From the NCBI RefSeq assembly GCF_030013205.1, contig NZ_CP122648.1: a DNA stretch of 64,000 nt; one strand, given 5' to 3'. A program made the translations under genes and the position numbers. Below are positions 40,265 to 40,980 of the stretch, piece by piece. Within the stretch, counting starts at the first letter, position 1. Every line of letters begins with the position of its first letter. The notes under the pieces were generated by a model. It saw only the letters and a program-made list of their open reading frames with translations. It was not told the origin of the DNA and did not search any database. Origin of the DNA: Escherichia coli (GTDB taxonomy: Bacteria; Pseudomonadota; Gammaproteobacteria; Enterobacterales; Enterobacteriaceae).

Positions 40265-40980
40265 CTATAAGGCTCTCTTACCAGCCGCGCCCTAACAGGC
40301 GCACACGATCTGACATTTGCATCCAACTTCGTTACTTACGGCCCGTAAACGGGCTGCCCGGATAGGGAATCGATAACTGCTCTCCCATTTTATCCTCTTC
40401 AAGCTGGTGCTTTATGTAATCCTGTATCTTCGCCGTGTTCTTACCCACCGTATCGACGTAGTACCCTCTGCACCAGAACTCCCTGTTCCTGTATTTGAAT
40501 TTCAAATCACCAAACTGCTCGTAAAGCATCAGACTGCTTTTCCCTTTCAGATATCCCATAAAGCCGGATACGCTCATTTTGGGCGGGATCTCCACAAGCA
40601 TATGGATATGATCTGCACAGCATTCAGCTTCCAGAATCCGTACACTTTTCCACTCACACAGCTTTCTCAAAATACTGCCTATTGCTCTACGCTTCTCTCT
40701 GTAGAACACCTGTCTTCGGTATTTTGGCGCAAAAACTATGTGATATTTACAGTTCCATCGGGTGTGCGCTAAGCTCTTTTCGTTCCCCATTGGGACCCCC
40801 TTTTGATTTCTTGTTTGACACTTGCAGTTGCCAGACCGCAAGGTGTTTTAACAAATCAAAAGGGGTTTTAATAACTGGCTTAAAGCTGAAAGCTTTCCGG
40901 ACCCCCCAGCCTAGCTGGGGGTTTTCTGTGCACAAAAAACCACGGGGCATCGCAGCCCCGTGGTTAAAACAAATGTTCAG
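40265..40980 (-). mobile_element. IS200-family insertion sequence (IS200/IS605 group), boundaries approximate
   Basis: Carries a 152-aa Y1/HUH transposase gene, with perfect palindromes in the upstream end (CCCCCCAGCctaGCTGGGGG at ~40900-40921 and CCACGGGGCatcgcaGCCCCGTGG at ~40950-40975) as expected for the IS200 left-end hairpins; ~0.7 kb inserted between brnQ and proY. Confidence 0.6.
40332..40790 (-). CDS. tnpA: IS200-type transposase TnpA (Y1 HUH transposase)
   Basis: MGNEKSLAHTRWNCKYHIVFAPKYRRQVFYREKRRAIGSILRKLCEWKSVRILEAECCADHIHMLVEIPPKMSVSGFMGYLKGKSSLMLYEQFGDLKFKYRNREFWCRGYYVDTVGKN...; HxH (HIHML) and catalytic-Tyr region characteristic of IS200 TnpA. Confidence 0.85.
   Translation of the reverse strand: MGNEKSLAHTRWNCKYHIVFAPKYRRQVFYREKRRAIGSILRKLCEWKSVRILEAECCADHIHMLVEIPPKMSVSGFMGYLKGKSSLMLYEQFGDLKFKYRNREFWCRGYYVDTVGKNTAKIQDYIKHQLEEDKMGEQLSIPYPGSPFTGRK

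Follow-up and report, generated by a model that had tools for sequence, protein, structure and literature searches.

An intact IS200-group element of the IS200C variant in the brnQ-proY spacer of Escherichia coli

We analyzed a 64,000-nucleotide stretch of an Escherichia coli genome (NCBI RefSeq assembly GCF_030013205.1, contig NZ_CP122648.1), referred to here as the window, and found a 711-bp insert in the spacer between brnQ and proY. We conclude, with a probability of roughly 0.93, that the insert is an intact single-gene element of the IS200 group (IS200/IS605 family), NCBI variant IS200C, which is most likely neutral or mildly polar. Its point of entry appears to have been the T-rich tail of the brnQ terminator, 24 nt before the proY start codon, and tnpA points in the same direction as brnQ and proY. 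The copy is of a known kind, already annotated in public genomes. We also describe the positions taken by other copies of the same element, which led us to a more tentative proposal on how IS200 elements choose their targets.

Results

Gene content and family of the insert

The gene order at the locus is phoB-phoR-brnQ-[insert]-proY-malZ, with every gene on the minus strand, and is otherwise standard for E. coli. brnQ lies at 40985-42304, tnpA at 40332-40790 and proY at 38825-40198, and a preliminary description of this DNA had likewise placed all three genes on the minus strand. It had also reported an IS200-type Y1 transposase gene in a brnQ-proY spacer that is short in K-12. Both points held: the 152-aa ORF has Pfam and NCBIfam matches, the insert is delimited by alignment with empty sites, and the spacer measures 75 bp in a K-12-like empty site.

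The tnpA product is a Y1/HUH transposase. It matches Pfam PF01797 (Y1_Tnp; E=3.8e-38, 130.7 bits against a cut-off of 23) and the NCBIfam equivalog NF033573 (transpos_IS200; 147.7 bits against a cut-off of 55), and it is homologous to solved transposases of the IS200/IS605 family (PDB 2ec2, 2f4f, 2a6m, and 2xm3), which include ISHp608 TnpA. Both the HUH motif (H61-I-H63) and the catalytic Tyr125 are intact; the Y125F mutant of Salmonella IS200 TnpA is catalytically dead (PMC4513863). The protein is identical to WP_000526135.1, whose NCBI PGAP product name in RefSeq, "IS200/IS605-like element IS200C family transposase," is the source of the name IS200C as used here. tnpA is the sole family-supported ORF in the 711-bp insert, which has no tnpB, and the window contains a single IS200 copy. 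As far as its sequence goes, this copy may be mobile; IS200 is notoriously dormant. A REP-associated tyrosine transposase (RAYT) was considered separately and rejected, with the NCBIfam model REP_Tyr_transpos scoring 32.2 bits against a cut-off of 80.

E. coli K_EC180, isolated from swine in Korea, shares 99.988% identity with the first 50 kb of the window. Elsewhere in the window, an intact 523-aa ORF (20608-22179, plus strand) lies between yajO and pgpA in a low-GC stretch (44% in 20-24 kb); its K_EC180 counterpart is annotated as a frameshifted pentapeptide-repeat protein. nusB (23910-24330, minus strand) is intact in the window and is annotated as partial, with its C terminus missing, in the near-identical K_EC180 record; an indel or an assembly difference on the K_EC180 side probably accounts for this. 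A 485-aa hypothetical protein is encoded at 35207-36664 (minus strand) between acpH and malZ; it gave no Pfam match above threshold, only a sub-threshold match to DUF3700 (18 bits).

Junctions and limits of the element

The site was aligned with two empty sites, one from a K-12-like O16:H48 strain (L001) and one from WCHEC000837 (L002). This revealed a clean 711-bp insert into a 75-bp spacer, and the complete IS200C element therefore occupies 40225-40935 or, equally, 40223-40933 (minus strand). The limits proposed previously, 40265-40980, had to be revised at both sides: they start about 40 bp inside the element, leaving out its right-end hairpin at 40232-40250, and extend about 45 bp beyond it into native sequence. 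With TT at both junctions, the ends of the element are fixed no better than 2 nt. TT is found at both junctions of every copy, so that 711 bp without a duplication is indistinguishable from 709 bp with a 2-bp duplication, and an additional T is seen in a variant that occupies the same site. Given this extra T, a strict model without target duplication may or may not hold.

Read on the minus strand from the brnQ side, the filled site consists of the brnQ stop codon, AACCACGGGGC-TGCGAT-GCCCCGTGGTT, and TTTT, followed by the element itself, which runs from TTGTGCACAGAAAACCCCCAGCTAGGCTGGGGGG to CCTCCGGCTATGCCGGAGGATATTTA, and then by TTATTGTGTTGATGGGTTAGGAATTG and the proY ATG. The empty site reads ...GTGGTTTTTTATTGTG... 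The element start, TTGTGCACAG, is constant in all copies examined and follows a base that can be t, c, a, or g. The ends are without terminal inverted repeats (8/40 matches in register). Instead, both carry a hairpin of the same form, with an 8-bp stem, a 3-nt loop, and GAAAA(A) before it. By analogy with the IS200/IS605 family, this layout would be that expected of TnpA recognition hairpins with adjacent guides.

The junctions also bear on the notion that the sequence belongs to a larger or composite mobile element or is an ancestral segment that was lost in K-12. The one observation in favor of such an origin is the presence of IS200 at the brnQ-proY site in several lineages. The flanks of the insert, however, are collinear to the base with K-12-like genomes on both sides, which places the element within no larger one; the phoBR-brnQ-[IS]-proY-malZ order is otherwise standard; and the identical 711 bp is found at many unrelated loci. 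We regard this notion as refuted by the empty-site alignment and assign it a negligible probability, and we retain the reading of a discrete IS200C element.

Left end, 5' untranslated region, and antisense RNA

The brnQ-proximal end was previously taken to be the IS200 left end, and the terminator hairpin and the STnc490 match described below are both located there. Two palindromes on this side had been assigned to the IS. The assignment stands for the inner one (40903-40921) and fails for the outer one (40938-40965), which is unchanged in the empty sites and belongs to the brnQ terminator. The inner palindrome forms a subterminal hairpin, CCCCCAGC-TAG-GCTGGGGG (minus strand; ssDNA fold of -9.8 kcal/mol). 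It corresponds in position to the IS200 bidirectional terminator (published nt 12-34) and is presumably the TnpA recognition hairpin. The primary source on the IS200 left-end terminator is reportedly the work of Beuzon et al. from 1999. Published IS200 positions were mapped here with nt 1 at ~40934. In the scheme of Ellis et al., the bidirectional terminator lies at nt 12-34, a stem-loop that sequesters the Shine-Dalgarno (SD) sequence at nt 69-138, the tnpA start near nt 145, and the 5' ends of the 90-nt antisense RNA art200 at nt 153/154 (PMC4513863). The role of transcription terminator suggested for the hairpin is documented, as bidirectional, for the IS200 left end (PMC4513863, PMC5435999), and the left-end terminator of Salmonella IS200 stops ~85% of upstream transcripts (PMC5435999).

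Directly 5' of the hairpin foot, the sequence reads GAAAA (40922-40926, minus strand). By analogy with IS608, this motif would serve as the guide for a T-rich cleavage and target site. The base just 3' of the hairpin, at 40902, is private to two copies: those of the window and K_EC180 read GCTGGGGGGTC, and all other sampled E. coli copies read GCTGGGGGTTC.

The 5' untranslated region (5'UTR) contains an SD-sequestering stem-loop at 40797-40865 (minus strand; published nt ~69-138), identified from inverted repeat I1 and an RNA fold. The arms of the long inverted repeat are at 40797-40812 and 40850-40865, and together they map to nt 70-138. The structure folds as RNA at -42.9 kcal/mol (z=-4.1), and the SD sequence AAGGGGGT (40795-40802) is buried inside it. 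Rfam family RF01405 (STnc490) matches 40800-40923 (minus strand) with 141.8 bits against a gathering score of 56, over positions 1-124 of the 124-position model, and it is the only Rfam family that reaches its gathering score anywhere in the window. The matched strand is the tnpA-sense one, and the match stretches from the left-end hairpin to a point shortly before the SD sequence. STnc490/art200, as published, runs antisense to tnpA (PMC2515195, PMC4513863); the match is a sign of conservation of the left end and 5'UTR, not of sRNA direction.

An antisense RNA over the tnpA 5' region had also been anticipated and is documented for IS200 as art200/STnc490 (PMC4513863). When the published 5' ends and length were mapped onto the window, they placed a predicted art200 of ~90 nt at 40781-40870 (plus strand). 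A candidate promoter for it combines a -35 element, TTTACA (40746-40751), with a poor -10 element, CTAAGC (40769-40774). By analogy with the published RNA, art200 would be located, and may be expressed, here as well.

These features raise the question of whether the copy is kept because the host has co-opted its RNAs, so that the element would be mainly an sRNA gene, as tnpA 5'UTR sRNAs regulate invF in Salmonella. The 5'UTR region is conserved over the full length of the Rfam model, processing of the tnpA 5'UTR yields regulatory RNAs in Salmonella (PMC5435999), and IS200 paralogs are very highly conserved despite dormancy, all of which would fit co-option. Yet the support so far comes from Salmonella and none from E. 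coli, the site is empty in ~96% of genomes, and the ORF is conserved equally. Moreover, the copies within a genome are identical, as expected from recent transposition or gene conversion. We consider co-option improbable and continue to view the insert as an intact IS200C element that is most likely neutral or mildly polar.

Right end

At the proY side, a second subterminal hairpin, CCTCCGGC-TAT-GCCGGAGG, lies at 40232-40250 (minus strand; ssDNA fold of -10.0 kcal/mol, z=-3.5). GAAAAA (40251-40256) stands before it and ATATTTA(TT) after it, and the hairpin is identical across all sampled copies. A match to the Rfam family AgvB at 40211-40256 (21 bits, E=0.5) covers just this hairpin and a T run, and it was taken as chance.

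The brnQ terminator and proY

The native intrinsic terminator of brnQ (40934-40965, minus strand), recognized from the empty sites, a terminator scan, and its fold, is the insertion target and does not belong to the IS. Its hairpin combines an 11-bp stem with a 6-nt loop and is followed by T6 (-13.9 kcal/mol, z=-4.25). Because the IS starts with TT, the terminator, as read from the sequence, keeps its hairpin and six Ts, and brnQ 3'-end formation should therefore stay unchanged. On the other side of the insert, the native proY leader with its AGGA ribosome-binding site (40199-40224, minus strand) now adjoins the IS right end. In the empty sites, ~24 nt separate the terminator tail from the proY ATG, which therefore leaves no room for a promoter of its own, and transcription of proY must come from upstream. 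With the insertion, an additional 711 bp and at least one extra terminator have come to lie between proY and any promoter upstream of it.

The insertion through which IS200 was discovered was polar (PMC4513863), and the preliminary description held that the element probably insulates proY from brnQ read-through. Such insulation is plausible but would be largely redundant with the native terminator. A stronger version of this idea is that the insertion regulates proY, either as a strong insulator against brnQ read-through or through a weak tnpA promoter that drives proY via a leaky right end. The short distance between terminator tail and ATG in the empty sites makes proY dependent on upstream transcription, and the left-end hairpin would act on that transcription if it stopped ~85% of incoming transcripts, as in Salmonella IS200. 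In addition, tnpA and proY are co-oriented, with only an imperfect tail, ATATTTATTATTG, after the right-end hairpin, and weak tnpA read-through into proY could occur via this imperfect terminator. On the other hand, the native terminator described above already stood between brnQ and proY and has been kept, and a scan of 40100-41100 found no promoter-like site facing proY. Furthermore, the proY ORF is intact in filled-site genomes, with neither decay nor selection for change visible, and ProY is described as a cryptic permease in the passage of a paper that cites Liao et al. 1997 (PMC11808508). Regulation of proY is thus unlikely in our judgment, and the effect of the insertion on proY is most likely neutral or mildly polar. 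An outward promoter had been entertained as a separate idea and was dropped after the same scan, which gave no sigma-70-like site reading out of the IS into proY within 40100-41100.

The brnQ-proY site in other genomes

Of 5426 complete E. coli genomes, 207 to 218 (~4%) have a filled brnQ-proY site; among genomes without a filled-site match, every sampled chromosomal locus was an empty site. IS200-like DNA is more widespread and is present in ~2449 of the 5426. Matching places number 19 in K_EC180, the best-matching genome, and reach ~35 at most in any one genome.

The site is also occupied by a second IS200 variant in other genomes, with 23 differences over 711 positions (3.2%) and the TnpA WP_001550720.1. 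In an evenly spaced sample of the ranking, this variant was found in 3 of 5 filled sites, a sample that gives the share of each variant as a range only. The two variants stand on different flank haplotypes, and one tandem pair is found at the site too. When the CFSAN061763 locus (L017, 301-1262) was compared with window positions 40100-41060 and with a further filled site (L018), it showed the variant IS200 with one extra T at the right junction. The L017 flanks hardly differ from those of a genome with IS200C at brnQ-proY, and the empty-site genome L001 and the filled L018 have a ProY allele in common. A variant at the same site together with a shared ProY allele suggests recurrent insertion or recombination and a marker that is not cleanly clonal. 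The use of the element for strain typing, which had been put forward earlier, is in line with the use of IS200 for typing in general and is weakened at this site by the two variants and the tandem pair.

Flanks of IS200 copies at other loci

To describe the surroundings of insertion sites, we combined loci encoding an identical TnpA, loci encoding a variant TnpA (together L007-L016 and L020-L029), and the window site, for a total of 18 distinct left-end flanks, each read at the base just before TTGTGCACAG. A contig scan with the left-end pattern AAAACCCCCAGCTAGGCTGGGGGG, which includes the private G of the window copy and proved too specific, returned 3 loci. Sixteen of the 18 flanks are chromosomal and include positions downstream of guaA, fabF, kdsA, nuoN, rplS, opgH, and a galU-like gene; the other two are formed by the right end of a different IS200 copy. 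In every one of the 18, the IS begins 0 to 9 nt past the 3' arm of a stable hairpin and has the same orientation; a T run is usually present. For the most part, the hairpin is the intrinsic terminator of the preceding, co-oriented gene. Co-orientation of that gene holds in nearly all cases, and in the first ten loci the gene ends roughly 35 to 65 bp before the IS.

A finder of perfect stems (loops of 3 to 8 nt) missed 3 of 10 sites, which have G-T pairs or 10-nt loops, and an energy-based test was used instead. In its strict form (ssDNA folding energy of at most -8 kcal/mol, gap of at most 7 nt), the test was passed by 15 of the 18 flanks; among 3000 window positions drawn at random, the pass rate was 2.6%. 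A hairpin flank is also present at L004-L006, three loci from other taxa whose IS200-like left ends have diverged; their sources are a Citrobacter genome, an uncultured bacterium, and a MAG, the last with another element's right end as its flank.

Head-to-tail tandem copies of IS200 were found at two loci, brnQ-proY (L024) and nuoN (L025), where the upstream hairpin and T-rich tail are the right end of the first copy. At L024 (1-1259; ENA ERZ28762363), the right end of the first copy, consisting of the hairpin and ATATTTA, directly abuts the TTGTGCAC of the second. At L025, two extra Ts stand between the right end of the first copy and the second copy. L004 likewise has a head-to-tail junction at ~6212-6290. 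A tandem junction of this kind is the same as the junction expected for an excised circle, and the IS right end resembles the preferred target.

Discussion

The window copy can be set beside several known systems. Salmonella enterica IS200 (Lam and Roth; Beuzon and Casadesus; Ellis and Haniford), compared here via the Rfam model and published coordinates, also has a single 152-aa Y1 transposase with Tyr125. It shares the left-end terminator hairpin (~nt 12-34), the SD-sequestering stem-loop (~nt 69-138) with the SD sequence AAGGGGGT, an art200/STnc490 RNA antisense to the 5'UTR (predicted in the window), and the lack of terminal inverted repeats. It differs in its published length, 707 bp versus 711 bp here, and the window copy has E. 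coli as its host and carries the NCBI label IS200C. IS1541 of Yersinia pestis and Y. pseudotuberculosis, an IS200 ortholog set beside the window copy by description, is likewise an IS200-group element, with one tnpA and with expression of STnc490 (PMC4513863), but it has another host and a copy number above 50. IS608 of Helicobacter pylori and ISDra2 of Deinococcus are more distant. Their Y1 HUH TnpA proteins are homologous to that of the window (E about 1e-19 to 1e-16), and they share subterminal hairpins at both ends, a short possible guide 5' of each hairpin foot, and an active strand on the lagging-strand template. Unlike the window element, they carry tnpB, and they insert 3' of TTAC or TTGAT. 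The flank of window-type IS200 copies is T rich (TTTNTT-like) and always follows a hairpin, whereas a target hairpin is absent from the IS608 model. As an analogy in target choice only, group IIC introns are described as typically lying just downstream of an inverted repeat and Ts (PMC1702495); they are retroelements and ribozymes, unrelated in mechanism and gene content.

From the mechanism known for the family, TnpA (a Y1 HUH enzyme) would bind the two subterminal hairpins on the tnpA-sense strand, excise this strand in circular form, and insert it 3' to a short T-rich stretch. The GC skew of the window plus strand is -0.08 to -0.09 at the locus and -0.50 cumulatively. Since this skew is negative, the minus strand has the G-rich sequence of a leading strand and is therefore the lagging-strand template. 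This is indirect evidence that the tnpA-sense strand sits on the lagging-strand template, the usual place of the active strand in the IS200/IS605 family (PMC5027513). The near-silence of the element could be maintained in four ways: the left-end hairpin would terminate incoming transcription, the 5'UTR stem-loop would hide the ribosome-binding site, and the antisense RNA art200 and Hfq would each add further repression.

For the association with terminators, we favor, on the strength of sequence comparisons, an active, structure-guided targeting of terminator tails together with recurrent use of the brnQ-proY site; survival at harmless positions possibly also contributes. In its full form, the proposal is that the IS200 group selects terminator-like targets, that is, a GC-rich hairpin with a T-rich tail on the lagging-strand template, in a fixed register and one orientation, and that these are read by structure plus the AAAA guide. 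We rate the chances of this proposal as about even. After insertion, the leading TT of the IS would restore the terminator T-tract, and the right end of the element (hairpin plus ATATTTATT) would mimic a terminator-like target. Such mimicry would explain the head-to-tail tandem copies, and structural targeting, if true, would account for the arrival of at least two IS200 variants at the brnQ terminator.

Much of IS200 biology has already been described in Salmonella and E. coli, including its dormancy, left-end terminator, art200, and use in typing. The general association of IS200 with terminators is not new either: literature searches for descriptions of IS200 or IS1541 insertion next to terminators turned up a recent statistical preprint (10.1101/2025.07.22.666184) and nothing else. 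No paper in the literature searched was found to define the insertion register, its orientation, or a connection with tandem copies, and older papers on IS200 and IS1541 may do so. At the brnQ-proY site itself, the element offers a presence/absence marker in ~4% of complete E. coli genomes, one of limited use at a site that has apparently been filled more than once. If true, a combination of structure and AAAA guide would be an addition to the IS608 rule, which relies on a tetranucleotide alone. If confirmed, the placement of IS200 in terminator tails would explain how a dormant element can reach 19 to ~35 copies per genome with little apparent harm, and it would provide a simple rule for predicting IS200 insertion hotspots.
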